Of a stretch of DNA of 64,000 nt, positions 8,334 to 13,776 are shown piece after piece (the stretch's first letter is position 1; each line of letters opens with the position of its first letter). The position numbers were made by a program, and so were the translations under genes. Below the pieces are notes generated by a model. The model was not told the origin of the DNA. It saw only the letters and a program-made list of their open reading frames with translations, and did not search any database. The stretch is from a bacterium (lineage in GTDB: Bacteria > Patescibacteriota > Minisyncoccia > Phycocordibacterales > UBA2100), in the NCBI GenBank assembly GCA_009924895.1, contig RFQR01000003.1, forward strand, positions 1,066-65,065. The letters are read 5' to 3'.

Positions 8334-8485
8334 TTCAAGCGCTCGAAAAATTTTCGTCAAAACTATTCTCCGCTCGACCCTGAAACTGACGCTCCATTTG
8401 GTAATGGAGCCTCCGCCAGTTTCTTTCGCTTCCCCCATCCTGCAAAAACAGCACAAAACCGGAGCATGTCTCCGATTTTCGCAGT
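8334..8485 (+). repeat. Copy D (divergent) of the tRNA-trailer structured repeat family
   Basis: Shares ctcgaccctga..., ctccgccagtttct, gcaaaaac..., and catgtctccgattttcg with copies A-C and E. Contains the hairpin gctccatttggtaatggagc. Confidence 0.5.
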
Positions 8486-8490
8486 TTTAG

Positions 8491-8561
8491 TGCGGGATGG
8501 GAGAATCGAACTCCCGACTCAACATTGGAAGTGTCGCATTTTACCACTAAACTAATCCCGC
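8491..8561 (-). tRNA. tRNA-Gly (anticodon UCC), no encoded CCA
   Basis: Cloverleaf: acceptor GCGGGAT/ATCCCGC, anticodon arm CGACA-CTTCCAA-TGTTG, T-arm GGGAG-TTCGATT-CTCCC, discriminator A. Confidence 0.85.
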
Positions 8562-9247
8562 GATGGTTTGGCAAGCGCTAAGCCAGATAAAGCCATGAGC
8601 TTACGAGCTAAGAATACACCAAAACGCTTTTCTCCCAAACTTTTTACTGTTACATTCGCAGTCCCATGGGGTAACTTCCCTCTCTTTTTTGCTTTTTTGT
8701 CAGTTCTCTTATCAATCACGGGCGAATAAAACCGTACTCGCGGCACCCCAGTCTCTTTGATCCAAAATGTGTGAGCTGCATCTACATCAGTGTCAGGATA
8801 CAGGTGTAACCTAATCCATATATTGTCGTTTCTAACCCCAACTGCCTCAATAAACCAGCGGATCATGAATGCAACAGTCAAACTATGTGCATTTACAAAA
8901 CGTACAATGTTGTCAGATTTGATTCCTTCGCCAATATACAAACCAAGTCCTAATAGAAACAGGTCTCGTTGCGACAATAACCCTAAATCTGATAGAGCCT
9001 CTATTTTAGCTGATTCCAGCGACTTTTGTTTTTGAAGACTTTTAACAGCAGTTGACGCGGCGCGAGCTTTCCCGATGCGCTCCTTTGTTTCCTTGTTAGG
9101 AACATAAAGCACGCTTGAAGTCCAAATACTTACCGTACTTTTTGAAACCGCAAGTTGCAGCGCTATGTATGAGTATGAATGTCCAGCTTTCCGCAATTCA
9201 ATTGCCGCTAATTTAGATGTTATTTTCGTCACACCTATAGTATACAT
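8552..9247 (-). CDS. HTH + LAGLIDADG-like protein (putative free-standing homing-endonuclease-like), paralog of 13905..14588
   Basis: An N-terminal HTH (LRKAGHSYSYIALQLAVSKSTVSIW), then LLGLGLYIGEGIK (LAGLIDADG-like), then WIKETGVP. Its 3' end overlaps the tRNA-Gly 5' end by ~10 nt. Start chosen at the ATG at 9247 (MYTIG...), which avoids overlap with the protease gene. Confidence 0.45.
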   Translation of the reverse strand: MYTIGVTKITSKLAAIELRKAGHSYSYIALQLAVSKSTVSIWTSSVLYVPNKETKERIGKARAASTAVKSLQKQKSLESAKIEALSDLGLLSQRDLFLLGLGLYIGEGIKSDNIVRFVNAHSLTVAFMIRWFIEAVGVRNDNIWIRLHLYPDTDVDAAHTFWIKETGVPRVRFYSPVIDKRTDKKAKKRGKLPHGTANVTVKSLGEKRFGVFLARKLMALSGLALAKPSRD

Positions 9248-9278
9248 GTAAGAATCAAAGACAAAGGTTTGAATCGTA

Positions 9279-10463
9279 TTGTATGATGCTTGGATGACAT
9301 TATTGCGCCCCCGGCAACACACTCTTTTAATTGCCCTCGTTGCAGTAATGCTTGGATATCCCATGTTGAAAATGGAGCAAATTCATACGCAGGAAACTTT
9401 TGAAATGCAGGGTCAGACTGCGGCTGTGAGTACCCCAGAAAAAGCACTGCCTGAAAAAAGCAACGAGATAAACAAAGAAAGATCGGGGCTTCCGACTTCC
9501 CCGATACCTCCAAAAGCTTTGACAGCCACACCTTCATCTTCAGACATACGAAGAGTAGGGATCACGACTAAACCCAACCAAGCGCAACGACTCATTAATC
9601 CCTACCCCTTCCCTCCTTCTGCACCCGAAATTATAAATGCGCAAGCCCGTACGGCACTCATAAATATTATCTGTGCCGGCGAAAATTCTATTCAGCCTGT
9701 TTCGGGAAGCGGTGTTTTTATCGATCCACGGGGCATTATCCTTACCAACGCTCATGTCGCGCAGTACGTTTTGCTCTCCGAAGACCCCCGTGTAGACCTC
9801 TCATGCTCCATCCGCTCCGGCTCTCCCGCCGAATCTCGATTTCGGGCTCGCGTGTTACACCTTCCGCGTTCATGGGTCGAGGAACACGCTGATGAAATCA
9901 ATAAAAGCAGGATCAAGGGTACCGGAGAACACGACTATGCGCTCCTTTTGATTACCGCCGGTGTCGACTCTCCCCTTCCCAGTACTTTTCCCTTCATACC
10001 TATCGATGCACGTGAGGCAATCGCCTTTACGGATGATACTGTCCTCACCGCAAGTTACCCTGCAGAATTTACAGGAGGACTTATAACACAGCGTGAGTTG
10101 TATGCTGTGAGTGCATGGGCACATATAACTGAATTGCATACCTTCAGGACAGGAACTGTTGACGCTTTTTCCCTGAGCAGTACAGTCGGCAGCCAGAGCG
10201 GTTCCTCTGGTGGCCCCGTTGTTAATGGCTGGCAACGTCTTGTTGGGATTATCACCACAATGAGCGGCGGGACTGCGACTGCAGACCGAAGCCTCCAGGC
10301 AATTAGTCTTGCCAGTATTTCTCGTGATATGCAAACTGATACCGGCTCGACATTAGAGCAATTTCTTACCCAAAATATTGAGGATCTGCTGGAGCGATTT
10401 GAAAAAATACGCAGCGAACTTTTGAATACTCTTGTAGCCCCGCTGTTGAAGCAACCTCGTTAG
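9279..10463 (+). CDS. Membrane-anchored trypsin-like (S1/HtrA-type) serine protease
   Basis: N-terminal TM helix; catalytic His (GSGVFIDPRGIILTNAHV), Asp (HDYALL), and Ser (GSSGGPVV). Confidence 0.7.
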   Translation: MYDAWMTLLRPRQHTLLIALVAVMLGYPMLKMEQIHTQETFEMQGQTAAVSTPEKALPEKSNEINKERSGLPTSPIPPKALTATPSSSDIRRVGITTKPNQAQRLINPYPFPPSAPEIINAQARTALINIICAGENSIQPVSGSGVFIDPRGIILTNAHVAQYVLLSEDPRVDLSCSIRSGSPAESRFRARVLHLPRSWVEEHADEINKSRIKGTGEHDYALLLITAGVDSPLPSTFPFIPIDAREAIAFTDDTVLTASYPAEFTGGLITQRELYAVSAWAHITELHTFRTGTVDAFSLSSTVGSQSGSSGGPVVNGWQRLVGIITTMSGGTATADRSLQAISLASISRDMQTDTGSTLEQFLTQNIEDLLERFEKIRSELLNTLVAPLLKQPR

Positions 10464-10464
10464 C

Positions 10465-10487
10465 TCGTGTCGGGCCGCTGGGAATCG
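10465..10487 (+). repeat. Distal 23-nt direct repeat of the tRNA-Pro 3' end plus 5 nt of trailer
   Basis: tcgtgtcgggccgctgggaatcg is identical to 10633..10655. Confidence 0.8.
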
Positions 10488-10594
10488 GTCAGGTATATTA
10501 ATTCTGTCGTCACAGAATTATTTGCACGACCCTGACTCGGCTGTTTTGCTTATGCGCAAAACATGCCTCCGTCTTTCGATTCCCAACGCAGCGG
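10487..10594 (+). repeat. Copy A of the tRNA-trailer structured repeat family
   Basis: ggtcagg, then hairpin1 aattctgtcgtcacagaatt, then ttgcacgaccctgactcgg, then hairpin2 gttttgcttatgcgcaaaac, then catgcctccgtctttcgattccc. Confidence 0.7.
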
Positions 10595-10637
10595 TGTACT
10601 GACACTACTGCTGCGACCCGCACACACTTCGTTCGTG

Positions 10638-10708
10638 TCGGGCCGCTGGGAATCGAACCCAGTCTACATGGTCCCAAACCATGCGTACTACCGGTATACT
10701 ACGGCCCG
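10638..10708 (-). tRNA. tRNA-Pro (anticodon UGG), no encoded CCA
   Basis: Acceptor CGGGCCG/CGGCCCG, anticodon arm CATGG-TTTGGGA-CCATG, T-arm CTGGG-TTCGATT-CCCAG. Confidence 0.85.
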
Positions 10709-10814
10709 CTCTTTGAAAACAGTCGAATAGTACCACATTGCACGCTGATTGGCTATTTGAAGCTGAAAATACTCGACTTTTTAGTGTTTCGCGGGACTGA
10801 TTTATAAAAGACAT

Positions 10815-12645: not shown

Positions 12646-12676
12646 AAAAAGAGCCCCGTACGGGCTCTTTTTGCTT
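12646..12676 (+). terminator. Intrinsic terminator
   Basis: aaaaagagccc-cgtac-gggctctttttgctttt. Confidence 0.65.
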
Positions 12677-12711
12677 TTACAATGAAAAAAATATGCTATA
12701 GTCCCGTCATC

Positions 12712-12782
12712 GCGGGCATAGTTTAGTGGTAGAACGATACCTTGCCAAGGTATAGATCGGAGTTCGATTCTCCGTGCCCGCA
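12712..12782 (+). tRNA. tRNA-Gly (anticodon GCC), no encoded CCA
   Basis: Acceptor GCGGGCA/TGCCCGC, anticodon arm ATACC-TTGCCAA-GGTAT, T-arm CGGAG-TTCGATT-CTCCG. Confidence 0.85.
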
Positions 12783-12839
12783 CAAAACAATAAGCGAAGC
12801 GTTTGTTTTGGCTGGCACAGGAAAGTGCCTGCGCACTTT

Positions 12840-12942
12840 CCGTGGAGAATCGAAAAGCGGAATCATGTTTTTGCAGCAGCAAAAACGGATGAGCTAGGGT
12901 CGTGCGGCTTTGTGTGCGGCGGCGCACAAAGAACGCCTGACC
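12840..12942 (-). repeat. Copy E of the tRNA-trailer structured repeat family (antisense to tRNA-Gly GCC)
   Basis: The reverse complement reads ggtcagg, then hairpin ctttgtg..cacaaag, then ccgcacgaccctagctc, then hairpin gtttttgctgctgcaaaaac, then catgattccgcttttcgattctcc. Confidence 0.7.
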
Positions 12943-12993
12943 GATCGAGTGCCCTCCATGCTTGGGAGATTCGAGTGACTGCACAAAAGAGCT

Positions 12994-13497
12994 TTAGGTT
13001 GAAATAATGTCATTTTTACCGACGAAGTAACCCTCGGTCATTTCAAGTTCTATTGGTTCAGATAAATATTGAATTGTATTTTTCGCAACTGCATTTTCAA
13101 TGAGTTGATTGGAGTATACAGGACTCACACCTTCTGAACACGAGAGGGTAATGTGAGGGTATTTATTAGTTGATTTCGGGTTTTCGACCAGCAACGCATC
13201 ACCACGCTCATCTGATATACGTGCAAGAACTTTTATTCGACATTTACGCCCAACATCGATACCGTCAACTGAGCCTGGTTAAAAAGCGATTGTTGAGTGG
13301 TGCGCCAGAACTCGTTTATGTTTCGGTGGGAATTGCGAAATGAGGTCCGGGACGTTATTTACAAACAGAGCTGTGTAGACCGGTACTATCGCTTCTGCTT
13401 TTTCTAGCCCCTTACGATAAAAATGGTTTCCAATTTTACAACATCTCCCGCCCGTGGCTTTTCTTTCATGGTGACATTCTAGCATCCTACGCAACAT
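12994..13497 (-). pseudogene. LigT/ThpR-like 2H phosphoesterase (RNA 2',3'-cyclic phosphodiesterase) interrupted by one in-frame TAA
   Basis: The two H-x-T/S-x motifs (HHSTIAF and HITLS) lie in the same frame, split by a TAA at 13279..13281. Reading through gives a ~167 aa protein: ...HHSTIAF*PGSVDGIDVGRKCRIKVLARISDERGDALLVENPKSTNKYPHITLS.... Confidence 0.55.
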
Positions 13498-13546
13498 GAC
13501 TATAGGTCACAGATATTTGCTTACCTCGGCAAAAAGGGTCTTTTGT

Positions 13547-13639
13547 GGTCAGAGATAATTTCTGCTCCGTCGAGCAGAAATTTCCACGACCCTGCCTCCG
13601 CCGTTTTCTCTGCTGAGAAAACATGCGTCCAACTTGCAC
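13547..13639 (+). repeat. Copy B of the tRNA-trailer structured repeat family
   Basis: ggtcag, then hairpin aatttctgctccgtcgagcagaaatt, then ttccacgaccctgcctccg, then hairpin gttttctctgctgagaaaac, then catgcgtccaacttgcac. Confidence 0.7.
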
Positions 13640-13683
13640 AAAAGCAGAAAACCTGGCGTTAGCCAGGCTTTCTGTTTTTAGGT

Positions 13684-13776
13684 GGTCAGGAATAATGCAC
13701 TTGTCGCCACTCATGCATTTTCCCGACCCGGACTCGTCCGTTTTTGCTACTGCAAAAACATGACTCCGTCTTGCAC
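13684..13776 (+). repeat. Copy C of the tRNA-trailer structured repeat family
   Basis: ggtcagg, then aatgca..tgcatt, then ttcccgacccggactcg, then hairpin gtttttgctactgcaaaaac, then catgactccgtcttgcac. Confidence 0.7.

Follow-up and report, generated by a model that had tools for sequence, protein, structure and literature searches.

A family of gene-less units of about 150 nt (~130–220 nt), apparently undescribed and widespread in Patescibacteria, occupies every tRNA gene of the window (the whole 64 kb stretch of DNA analysed), and these units probably represent non-autonomous, site-specific integrative mini-elements mobilised in trans by a putative enzyme. Read on the strand of the target gene, a unit has the order X(1), hairpin(s), X', core, X(2): X(1) is a copy of the 3' part of the target gene, the sequence of X' complements that of X(1), and X(2), after the core, is a second copy of the target 3' part; the one or two hairpins between X(1) and X' are often terminator-like, usually with a CUGC loop. 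The core itself (~95 nt) is a conserved three-way junction, or Y shape. More than 150 homologues exist in Patescibacteria genome assemblies, and covariance-model searches gave 177 matches across 118 loci, all of which were chosen for containing the element, so that frequencies among them are biased. No known match for the family was identified in Rfam, viral contigs or the literature searched.

Five copies (A to E) had been described in the initial annotation; repeat search recovered their shared blocks and coordinates, and a covariance model (R1, built from 72 homologues and run unfiltered over the 64 kb window) places A, B, C and E in a single family at 89–100 bits, with D as a divergent member that has the same fold. 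The sole further match to this model in the window is a half-element at 58291–58343. Two conserved motifs occur 4 and 5 times, as compared with 0.6–0.7 by chance, and the window copies are mutually 68–87% alike. ARAGORN and Rfam identify four tRNAs in the window (Gly-UCC, Pro-UGG, Gly-GCC, and Arg-UCG), and all four are followed 3' by a copy in fixed relative orientation, with two tandem copies at Arg, as had been claimed. The features are as follows:

8311..8333, minus: copy D, direct repeat X(2), displaced, covering the tRNA-Gly(UCC) 3' part from T-loop to trailer; 23 nt at 100% identity to 8486–8508
8331..8429, minus (proposed folding strand; model R1 matches the plus reading): copy D, divergent core module; cmsearch 26.2 bits, E=1.6e-4; Y-shaped fold of −55.9 kcal/mol (z=−6.0) on the sense strand vs −37.9 on the other
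8430..8440, minus: copy D, X', the tRNA 3' part in inverted form; in the minimum-free-energy fold it pairs with 8320–8330 as helix P0, closing the Y
8455..8479, minus: copy D, terminator-like hairpin between tRNA and core; terminator scan, 10 pairs and a T-rich tail
8490..8561, minus: tRNA-Gly(UCC), target of copy D, with its 3' part 8486–8508 as X(1); ARAGORN, Rfam, repeat search
10460..10487, minus: copy A, direct repeat X(2), displaced, covering the tRNA-Pro 3' part and trailer; 28 nt, 93% identical to 10628–10655, matching at 23/23 positions at −62 relative to the CGACCC motif and adjoining the stop codon of a protease gene
10485..10579, minus: copy A, core three-way-junction module; cmsearch 89.5 bits, sense strand −52.4 kcal/mol, z=−8.3
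10575..10594, minus: copy A, X', which repeats the tRNA-Pro T-loop, T-stem and acceptor 3' strand in inverted, degenerate form; repeat search
10587..10615, minus: copy A, spacer hairpin between tRNA and core; read from sequence
10637..10708, minus: tRNA-Pro(UGG), target of copy A, with X(1) at 10628–10655; ARAGORN, Rfam, repeat search
12712..12783, plus: tRNA-Gly(GCC), target of copy E; ARAGORN, Rfam
12784..12809, plus: copy E, first hairpin past the tRNA (A-run, stem, T-run), read from sequence; duplicated along with the unit in strain L119
12820..12841, plus: copy E, hairpin H2 with the family-typical CTGC loop (12829–12832); sequence
12842..12854, plus: copy E, X' (GTGGAGAATCGAA), the tRNA T-loop and T-stem 3' strand in reverse complement; repeat search
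12850..12944, plus (sense strand; model R1 matches the minus strand): copy E, core module; cmsearch 95.6 bits, sense −45.3 vs −34.2 kcal/mol on the other strand
12943..12984, plus: copy E, displaced X(2), degenerate and split by an insert of 23 nt, which in strain L119 measures 38 nt; sequence and L119 comparison
13545..13639, minus: copy B, core of the unit farther from tRNA-Arg in the tandem pair; cmsearch 89.5 bits, fold
13645..13674, minus: copy B, terminator-like hairpin of the unit; terminator scan, 13 pairs
13682..13776, minus: copy C, core of the unit adjoining tRNA-Arg; cmsearch 100 bits
13781..13814, minus: copy C, perfect 15-bp hairpin with GCAG/CTGC loop, between core and tRNA-Arg; repeat search
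13820..13892, minus: tRNA-Arg(UCG), target of copies C and B; ARAGORN, Rfam

One arm of the core combines a GUUUU...AAAAC stem with a GGA/GA internal loop; the other, which is long, is closed by GGUCG/UGAC with an invariant G.U pair. Compensatory stem changes, first noted in the window copies, are upheld on 72 sequences, for which RNAalifold gives 31 pairs, 22 with double changes. In a fuller structure, 24 of 33 pairs carry double changes, and paired cells amount to 93.8%, as compared with 72.9% in shuffles and 32–50% with partners slid. The two hairpins previously proposed are real and covarying, but reach further than first reported: hairpin 1 is closed by GGTC...GACC, and hairpin 2 gains two additional 3-bp helices. 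Column invariance at CGACCC, TC, GTTTT, and AAAACATG in pattern-retrieved loci arises by construction, since the retrieval pattern fixes these positions. The earlier description of the element as antisense is a mere reading convention, and the tRNA-sense strand folds better. The antisense strand has 25 G.T and 125 A.C wobble cells, and the sense strand therefore 125 G.U and 25 A.C; leaving out one invariant pair, the count is 53 vs 25 with the sense strand ahead, and folding gains on that strand are 7–18 kcal/mol in 5/5 window copies. These wobble counts and modelled fold energies suggest that the tRNA-sense strand is probably the folded one.

Contrary to what the initial annotation had supposed, the family is not restricted to tRNA 3' ends. 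Target sites in tRNA genes include T-loops, 3' ends, and 5' ends (inverted, on the other-strand reading); tmRNA is the target in 3 loci; the protein-gene targets are the last 2–22 codons of ftsZ, efp, rpsI, and topA; and one unit lies just past the dnaJ stop codon. Direct repeats of the tRNA 3' part, absent from the earlier description, flank copies A (28 nt at 93%) and D (23 nt at 100%), and perfect 14-mer direct repeats adjoin the core in 11 among 118 units. The direct repeat always starts at C56 (T-loop class) or at N72-A73-C74 (3'-end class), while its length ranges from 3 to >60 nt, so that the mobile reading must assume an element that carries whatever lies 3' of the crossover. The inverted T-arm copies reported at the ends of A and E were confirmed by repeat search; more broadly, an inverted tRNA-end copy accompanies 60% of element-bearing tRNAs, as compared with 16% of element-free tRNAs and 3% of shuffles. 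X' agrees with X(1) over X(2) at 35 vs 13 discriminating positions, and at ftsZ it is perfectly complementary to X(1) over 17 nt. A trailer and hairpin are common to tRNA-Arg and tRNA-Ile units from different genomes, and the hairpin loop that prevails by a wide margin is CTGC (GCAG on the other strand), in about 60 of 101 units.

Protein-gene targets show what becomes of the gene end. Past the core at ftsZ, 12 codons give the same VPAFLRRSKLK-stop with 9 synonymous and no non-synonymous differences; at topA, the first 20 codons of the displaced copy, which has its own stop codon, contain 13 synonymous differences and 1 non-synonymous difference; efp and rpsI show a similar pattern. Judged from these sequences, the displaced ftsZ and topA ends bear the hallmark of an element that integrates and supplies an allelic gene end of its own.

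Over 11 kb, strain L119 matches the window at 100% identity, yet it contains two tandem units at tRNA-Gly(GCC) rather than one; this tandem duplication, the sole recent event, could alternatively be caused by unequal crossing-over. The element is also present at tRNA-Arg(UCG) orthologues in L015, L067, L093, and L106. In the syntenic L015 and L067, matches to model E occur at tRNA-Arg only, and copies were gained in the window lineage relative to these genomes. Tandem and nested arrays and truncated older copies are present, as are several unrelated body families arranged in the same X'-body-X order. Identity between units at different loci is never above about 90%, and there is thus no sign of recent intra-genome transposition. 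Neither a recombinase nor an excised form nor an empty-site allele was found for the units; no protein family is linked to them within 2.5 kb, consistent with mobilisation in trans. As a separate observation, a strain SNP in the core of copy C (G to A at 13768) converts one base pair of the sense strand to G.U.

The initial annotation had offered two readings. That of a miniature integrative or mobile element is supported by the direct repeats, arrays, copy-number difference between strains, gains, and synonymous gene ends. That of a structured RNA or ssDNA-hairpin element is partly borne out by the strongly covarying folded core and the terminator-like hairpin, but its likeness to attC sites fails, boxes of the form RYYYAAC...GTTRRRY being found in 0/234 strands. 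In the mechanism we propose for a mobile element, the free form would probably be circular and single-stranded, and X(1) would pair with X' as a third arm, showing a duplex copy of the target beside the junction. A recombinase encoded elsewhere would bind both conserved arms, with strand exchange at the border of the core 3' end (...GUGAC) and the start of X. The X(1) of the element would take the place of the gene's own 3' end, the hairpin would be supplied by the element, and the original end, X(2), would be displaced downstream; successive events would yield tandem and nested arrays, and spread would be mostly horizontal, among homologous loci of different genomes. Besides the missing recombinase, excised form and empty-site allele, the lack of any sign of recent intra-genome transposition and the variable repeat length, two considerations weigh against this reading: it gives no account of how the target-specific X(1)/X' pair is acquired, and conservation of the core in very distant lineages could equally reflect host function.

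A host-beneficial 3'-end module (terminator, insulator, or RNA stability), not self-mobile and spread by ordinary horizontal transfer and recombination with the repeats as by-products, appears distinctly unlikely. The targets are mostly genes expected to be highly expressed (tRNA, tmRNA, rpsI, efp, ftsZ), A/T-run hairpins adjoin the gene end, the tRNA-Arg(UCG) unit is retained in several related genomes, and every copy folds although divergence within genomes equals that between them. However, a terminator needs no conserved 95-nt junction downstream, units at tRNA 5' ends point away from the gene, a displaced gene end is not expected from homologous replacement, and the arrays, truncated older copies, and unrelated X'-body-X families indicate insertion events. 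It is scarcely credible that replication or repair produced the units as by-products, with fold-back priming at terminator hairpins and template switching making inverted and direct copies without a dedicated element. While the order X, hairpin, X' is that expected from snap-back synthesis and the 17-nt complementarity at ftsZ fits, the synonymous differences mean that neither X(1) nor X(2) was copied locally from the other, which largely contradicts this origin; the exact, conserved core boundaries, a structure covarying in 118 loci, and the excess of inverted copies at element-bearing tRNAs likewise count against it.

A mobile element whose core acts as RNA is unlikely. On this view the core would serve as the scaffold, and X' or X(2) as the guide, of a recombinase or nuclease that is directed by RNA and encoded elsewhere, in the manner of IS110 bridge RNAs or TnpB/IscB omega RNAs. 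The strong one-strand G.U bias, invariant pair included, would suit such a scaffold, as would the purine-rich GGA/GA internal loop of the sense strand, which reads UC/UCC on the other; purine-rich loops of this kind are common in RNA. X' is complementary to the target over the insertion point at, for example, L074, and X(2) directly follows the scaffold, the place of a 3' guide. Yet ssDNA also forms G.T and sheared G.A pairs, a terminator-like hairpin usually separates the upstream gene from the core, no conserved promoter was seen, and bridge and omega RNAs are, so far as is known, encoded beside their protein genes, whereas no recombinase or nuclease gene is linked to the units within 2.5 kb. 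Strand-specific folding and hairpins at or near both ends could also describe the remnant of a hairpin-ended ssDNA transposon of IS200/IS605 type, palindrome-associated and mobilised by an HUH transposase, and the folding strand is the lagging-strand template in 4/5 window copies, as assigned from dnaA at 50.5 kb and GC skew. This origin is very improbable: IS200/IS605 members are not known to make a target duplication, whereas here the target 3' part is repeated and the gene end replaced by an allele; moreover, the units have no fixed 4–5 nt target motif and no linked TnpA/TnpB gene (within 2.5 kb).

Site-specific integrative elements and phages, such as phage 21 and e14 in E. coli icd, use tRNA and tmRNA genes or a protein gene's 3' end as targets. 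Like the units, they insert inside the gene 3' part (T-loop or extreme 3' end), supply a replacement 3' end, displace the original as a direct repeat that is mainly synonymous in protein genes, and accrete in tandem. The units differ in being merely 130–220 nt with no integrase or other gene, in their covarying three-way-junction core and inverted target copy, and in the use of many different targets by one core family. CIMEs (cis-mobilizable elements) hitch-hike with ICEs, which mobilise them in cis. They resemble the units as gene-less integrated DNA bounded by att-like repeats and presumably served by an enzyme encoded elsewhere; the units, in contrast, have no known parent element, are about 150 nt long, and possess a folded core in a family conserved over a phylum-level radiation.

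With attC sites and CALINs (integrase-less attC clusters) the units share a conserved structure despite drifting sequence, folding of one strand, conservation of unpaired or wobble positions, a location at gene 3' ends, and arrays that lack an adjacent recombinase; but the units form a three-way junction rather than a single bulged hairpin, duplicate the target 3' part, and contain no cassette ORF. MITEs and REP/BIME, Correia, and RPE elements are similarly small, non-coding, multi-copy, and structured, and may lie at gene ends, whereas the units lack intrinsic terminal inverted repeats and fixed-length target duplications, and target gene ends precisely with the gene restored. Casposons, which are Cas1-based, share the preference for 3' ends of tRNA and translation-factor (elongation-factor) genes and the duplication of a target segment; they are multi-kilobase and self-synthesising, are bounded by terminal inverted repeats, and duplicate a constant length of about 14–15 bp, whereas the repeats of the units have variable lengths and are alleles, not identical copies. 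IMEX elements such as CTX-phi enter a single dif site as folded single-stranded DNA through host Xer recombinases, whereas the units use dozens of different targets in each lineage, with no dif-like consensus identified. Both lack a recombinase of their own and have inverted copies forming a hairpin that mimics the chromosomal target, and a XerC/D-type host tyrosine recombinase is encoded within the window (17360–18268).

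A repeat search recovered the sequence blocks shared by copies A, B, C, and E, four of the five elements proposed in the window, where the initial annotation had placed them, and two conserved motifs occur four and five times in the window as against 0.6–0.7 by chance. A covariance model built from 72 homologues (R1), used to search the 64-kb window without filters, scored copy C at 100 bits, E at 95.6 bits, and A and B at 89.5 bits each; the divergent copy D (8331-8429) reached 26.2 bits (E = 1.6e-4). This search, which the initial annotation had proposed as a check, thus recovers all five copies, and the agreement of repeat search, motif counts, and R1 scores indicates that they are real. 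They are the only full copies in the 64 kb, and each of the four tRNA genes of the window has at least one:

8490-8561, minus strand, tRNA-Gly(UCC), with copy D
10637-10708, minus strand, tRNA-Pro(UGG), with copy A
12712-12783, plus strand, tRNA-Gly(GCC), with copy E
13820-13892, minus strand, tRNA-Arg(UCG), with the tandem copies B and C

Only one other R1 match in the window has E < 0.01, a half-element at 58291-58343 (minus strand) that matches the long-hairpin arm of the model only (GGTCAC...GCGACCCC). It lies directly 3′ of the stop codon of an ORF at 58352-59383, and a second small GGTCG...TGACC hairpin is found about 60 nt beyond it.

Scanning one genome per species with a degenerate pattern derived from the conserved blocks returned at least 118 loci, nearly all in Patescibacteria assemblies annotated as Saccharibacteria, Paceibacterota, or Nomura-, Kaiser-, Taylor-, or Lloydbacteria. 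Within the 118 loci listed, R1 identifies 177 copies and nhmmer 154; 104 of the 154 nhmmer copies lie at most 350 nt from a tRNA 3′ end, in the same orientation to the tRNA as in the window, and the modal tRNA-to-copy distance among nhmmer copies is 55–59 nt. The tRNA targets among these loci span at least 18 amino-acid identities, and a copy occurs within 700 nt of 105 of their 200 tRNAs, in loci chosen because they contain the element. Units at different tRNA types share 84–87% identity over 126–140 nt, and no pair of units at different loci exceeds about 90% identity. The adjacency to tRNA 3′ ends reported for the window holds for all copies there, but beyond it tmRNA, tRNA 5′ ends, and protein-gene ends are also used. 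Querying Rfam 15 with the window, a comparison also suggested at the outset, yielded no family matching the element: only tRNAs reached their gathering scores, no non-tRNA family at an E-value of 10 or less reached half its gathering score or spanned the whole core, and a weak, sub-threshold BSnc120 match merely clips copy C. A full-text literature search found no description of such elements. The element motif had no matches in IMG/VR viral contigs, and therefore nothing points to a phage attP arm.

The conserved part of each unit is a core of about 95 nt. RNAalifold applied to 72 sequences predicted 31 pairs, 22 of them with compensatory changes. On the strand read in the initial annotation (antisense to the tRNA), the features of the core are:

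P0, antisense strand: closing helix built from the flanks
P1, antisense strand: GTC/GAC, then an invariant A·C mismatch
long hairpin after P1, antisense strand: bulged T and CGYC loop
junction, antisense strand: CCY
P3, antisense strand: 3-bp helix, then a TC/TCC internal loop
P2a, antisense strand: second 3-bp helix, then the stem GTTTTnn/nnAAAAC

The claim that structure is kept while sequence drifts is borne out by this structure, which is fuller than the RNAalifold prediction: 93.8% of cells are paired, compared with 72.9% in column shuffles and 32–50% with slid partners, and 24 of 33 pairs show double changes; none of 500 shuffles attains any observed covariation measure. In the columns that the retrieval pattern fixes, invariance is built in by the search. 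Kissing of the CUGC hairpin loop with the GUUUU-arm loop was considered and rejected, as these loops do not covary.

The strand that folds is probably not the one antisense to the tRNA. Pairs on that strand include 25 G·T and 125 A·C cells, so that the complementary, tRNA-sense strand has 125 G·U and 25 A·C cells, including one invariant G·U pair; with that pair left out, the counts (53 vs. 25 cells) still favor the sense strand. The internal loop reads GGA/GA on the sense strand and could form tandem sheared G·A pairs. Sense-strand folds of the five window copies reach −52.4, −45.2, −44.1, −45.3, and −55.9 kcal/mol, compared with −45.6, −36.1, −33.7, −34.2, and −37.9 kcal/mol, respectively, for the antisense folds, a gain of 7–18 kcal/mol in all five, with better z-scores as well. 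The minimum-free-energy fold of copies A, B, E, and D is a Y-shaped three-way junction closed by P0; that of copy C has both conserved arms and lacks P0. Finally, through a strain SNP at 13768, one pair becomes G·U on the sense strand. Wobble counts, internal loop, predicted energies, and SNP point the same way, to the tRNA-sense strand as the probable folding strand, and "antisense to tRNA" is therefore merely a reading convention.

In the orientation of the target, the parts run from the gene end X(1) through one or two hairpins, X′, and the core to X(2). X(1) is the 3′ part of the target gene, X′ its reverse complement, and X(2) a direct repeat of it. The positions of the repeats are constant relative to the core, the 3′ end of which reads ...GUGAC or ...CUGAC. 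The hairpin adjoining X′ carries a CUGC loop in about 60 of 101 units and often has A and T runs beside it; in units B and D, the hairpins score as terminators. Insertions at tRNAs fall into three classes. In the T-loop class (copies A, D, and E), X extends from C56 through the tRNA 3′ end into the trailer, and the direct repeats in the window are 28 nt long (93% identity) and 23 nt long (100% identity); perfect 14-mer direct repeats number 11 among 118 units. In the 3′-end class, to which copies B and C and most units elsewhere belong, X comprises N72-A73-C74 and 1–5 nt of trailer, and the two flanking triplets follow the tRNA end when it reads ...GGAC in place of ...GCAC (3/3 cases). A 5′-end class has the unit at the tRNA 5′ end on the opposite strand, where the complement of the acceptor 5′ strand resembles the acceptor 3′ strand; some tRNA-Lys genes have units on both sides. 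An inverted copy of the tRNA end is found downstream of 60% of element-bearing tRNAs, compared with 16% of element-free tRNAs and 3% of shuffles.

Where X(1) and X(2) differ, 35 positions of the X′ complement match X(1) and 13 match X(2). Units at tRNA-Arg and tRNA-Ile of different genomes (loci L019 and L024) have trailer, hairpin, and X′ in common. Together these data suggest that X(1), hairpins, X′, and core travel as one, whereas X(2) would be the original end, displaced. Downstream of tRNAs there are also other small body families, at least four of them (L075, L041, L062, L068, L063, L101, and L015 at 6935-7040), with no or only distant relationship in sequence; all keep the same layout of inverted tRNA 3′ part, structured body, and direct repeat of the tRNA 3′ part. 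Most tRNA genes among those seen have no encoded CCA. ARAGORN calls a 74-nt tRNA with anticodon UUA ("tRNA-Stop") at L055 4187-4260 and at L074 1437-1510, nearly identical to neighboring tRNA-Lys(UUU) genes and possibly a miscall or a suppressor tRNA.

The units are not confined to tRNA genes. Three units adjoin the T-arm end of tmRNA, and further units are found at the ends of ftsZ, efp (three genomes), rpsI (two genomes), topA, and dnaJ, as identified by Pfam. For ftsZ, topA, efp, and rpsI, the stretch that follows the core, X(2), repeats the last codons of the gene; no such copy was seen after the unit at dnaJ. Both copies of the ftsZ end encode VPAFLRRSKLK-stop, with 9 synonymous and 0 non-synonymous differences over 12 codons; the first 20 codons of the topA repeat show 13 synonymous differences and 1 non-synonymous, and the copy has its own stop codon; efp and rpsI follow a like pattern over 3–5 codons. 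A locally duplicated end under neutral decay would not have kept its protein sequence; X(1) and X(2) therefore diverged as functional gene ends in different lineages, and local duplication as the origin of the repeats was rejected on the strength of these synonymous differences. Element-bearing tRNAs in the window likewise stay intact. The same signature is known from inserts that supply the target gene with a new 3′ end on integration, for example phage 21 and e14 in the icd gene of E. coli.

Comparison of close strains revealed a single kind of recent change, one versus two tandem units. A contig of a near-identical strain (L119), 100% identical to window 2001-12962, carries two tandem units rather than one after tRNA-Gly(GCC) (L119 10790-11230 vs. 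window 12775-12990; +217 nt); its middle repeat is a hybrid of the two outer repeats, and its displaced repeat has 15 bases (tgccatttcgagcgc) more than the window. Copies D and A are present in strains at 99.7% identity and copies B and C in a contig at 99.9%, with few SNPs; contigs of related strains end at the repeats of copy E. No empty sites were found in contigs 99.7–100% identical to the window, the units being alike save for the tandem duplication and the 15-nt indel, and no excised form was found either. For the adjacent protease, identity to the next relatives is 60% at most. In the syntenic loci L015 and L067, nhmmer matches to the E family occur downstream of tRNA-Arg(UCG) only, where L093 and L106 likewise carry the element; in L015, an ORF directly follows tRNA-Pro, and tRNA-Gly(UCC) is followed by a different body family with the same X′-body-X layout. 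Tandem, nested, and truncated units are common among the loci.

No gene appears to accompany the units, which measure 130–220 nt and contain no integrase gene. Clustering of 821 neighboring ORFs from the 118 loci did not identify a recurrent protein family within 2.5 kb of units; the largest cluster covers 9 of the 118 loci, and its representative, judged by sequence, looks like a spurious ORF called across a tRNA gene. LOOT RNA (RF03000) occurs in two Patescibacteria loci (L094 4256-4370 and L011 6513-6628), in one of them about 110 nt from an element copy.

The logic of these units is known from tRNA/tmRNA-targeting integrative elements and CIMEs. As in the former, the element is flanked by direct repeats of the target 3′ part (resembling attL/attR), the gene is restored by a 3′ end that the element brings, and the end it displaced is allelic; however, those elements carry an integrase gene and the units here have none. 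CIMEs have lost integration and transfer genes and keep attL/attR recombination sites (PMC6323972); the units fit this description in their att-like repeats and absence of genes, although no parent ICE or IME, and no gene loss from one, was seen. Unlike both, they measure about 150 nt with neither a gene nor a known parent element, combine a covarying junction core with a built-in complement of the target, and use one core for dozens of targets across the whole radiation. The unit is not a MITE, having neither intrinsic terminal inverted repeats nor fixed-length target duplications: comparing the first with the last 10 nt of the core gives 4 matching positions out of 10 (modal raw count) and no clear inverted repeat, the closing helix of the unit is target-derived rather than element-intrinsic, and direct repeats range from 3 to more than 60 nt. 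Nor is it an integron attC site, although it resembles one in conserving structure over sequence and in strand-specific folding: the R″/R′ boxes (RYYYAAC ... GTTRRRY) are found in 0 of 234 unit strands.

Other readings see in the unit a scaffold or guide RNA, a terminator module of the host, an element of the IS200/IS605 kind, or a by-product of replication. Several RNA candidates were considered; for IS110 bridge RNA and TnpB/IscB omega RNA, the expected neighboring recombinase or nuclease gene family was not found. Self-cleaving ribozymes, retron RNA, T-boxes, and riboswitches were rejected on inspection by eye, which showed none of the hammerhead or hairpin ribozyme core sequences checked, no reverse-transcriptase gene adjacent as for a retron RNA, and no window unit in a 5′ leader as for a T-box or riboswitch. 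A tRNA-like mimic, in which acceptor complement, hairpin, and T-stem complement would pair with X(2), fits the T-loop class but not the majority 3′-end class. Terminator function could account for the hairpins of B and D, but beyond these sits a conserved 95-nt core that is not a terminator. A palindrome-associated element derived from IS200/IS605 was set aside: such elements make no target duplication, use a short fixed target motif, and have TnpA/TnpB relatives, whereas here target repeats are present, the targets are heterogeneous, and no linked transposase was found. The position of dnaA and the GC skew put the folding strand of copies A–D on the lagging-strand template; this placement follows tRNA orientation and is weak evidence.

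The reading best supported by these data is a family of non-autonomous, site-specific integrative mini-elements. Units would insert in the 3′ part of genes that tolerate insertion, restoring the gene with their own copy and supplying a hairpin, often terminator-scoring, and would be mobilized in trans, largely between homologous loci of different genomes. If the core 3′ end were joined to X(1), a closed molecule with three arms would result, its X(1)/X′ arm forming a duplex copy of the target beside the junction. The expected circle or tandem junction would have core ...GTGAC joined to X(1), trailer, and hairpin (TTATTCCTGACCACTAAGACGAAAAG in the example of copy C), and an empty site would be expected to read, for example, GGCAAAAAGGGTCTTTTGTGCACCCGTCAGG. 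Most simply, the three-way junction may be the recognition module of a trans-acting enzyme, folded single-stranded as DNA or RNA. A bolder version, which we regard as rather improbable, is a self-targeting mini-element whose junction, as ssDNA or RNA, presents the X(1)/X′ arm, so that the target is set by nucleic-acid homology while a conserved host or trans-acting enzyme exchanges strands at the junction. If true, this would be a naturally re-targetable integration system that spread across Patescibacteria by changing that arm only. The chance that the principle of targeting is itself new is substantial.

The very small genomes of Patescibacteria are thought to contain few mobile elements. 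If a phylum-wide 150-nt family repeatedly exchanges tRNA, tmRNA, and essential protein-gene 3′ ends among lineages, genomes would change and trade gene ends by a route so far overlooked; the units also account for contigs breaking at repeats, ORF calls overlapping elements, and duplicated gene ends. One folded core with dozens of targets and no linked enzyme suggests structure-specific, possibly homology-programmed recombination, which if confirmed would be of interest to mobile-DNA biology and genome engineering.

The window also encodes a XerC/D-type tyrosine recombinase of 302 aa (17360-18268, minus strand) and a CCA-adding enzyme (14612-16108, plus strand), both within 4 kb of the tRNA-Arg element array, as well as RuvC and a YraN-like protein; nothing ties the recombinase, RuvC, or the YraN-like protein to the element. 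In and around the UPF0102 (YraN-like) gene beside tRNA-Pro, the palindrome TTTCACGTGAAA occurs four times (10989-11003, 11188-11202, 11235-11249, and 11389-11403), and these sequences look like operator sites for a dimeric regulator. The replication-origin region (50100-53400) has rpmH, rnpA, and yidC on the minus strand, then dnaA (50523-52061) and dnaN (52272-53363), and coincides with the cumulative GC-skew minimum. Adjoining it is a type IV secretion-like cluster (about 43300-48900) with PrgI, a TraC-like protein, a VirB4/TraG-type P-loop ATPase (44518-46350), and a T4SS pilin. An AbiEii-family toxin gene and an upstream DUF6922 gene (3717-4587, minus strand) form a putative toxin–antitoxin pair, and a UvrD-type helicase gene (32233-35283, plus strand) encodes a product with intein (Hint/Intein_splicing) domains.
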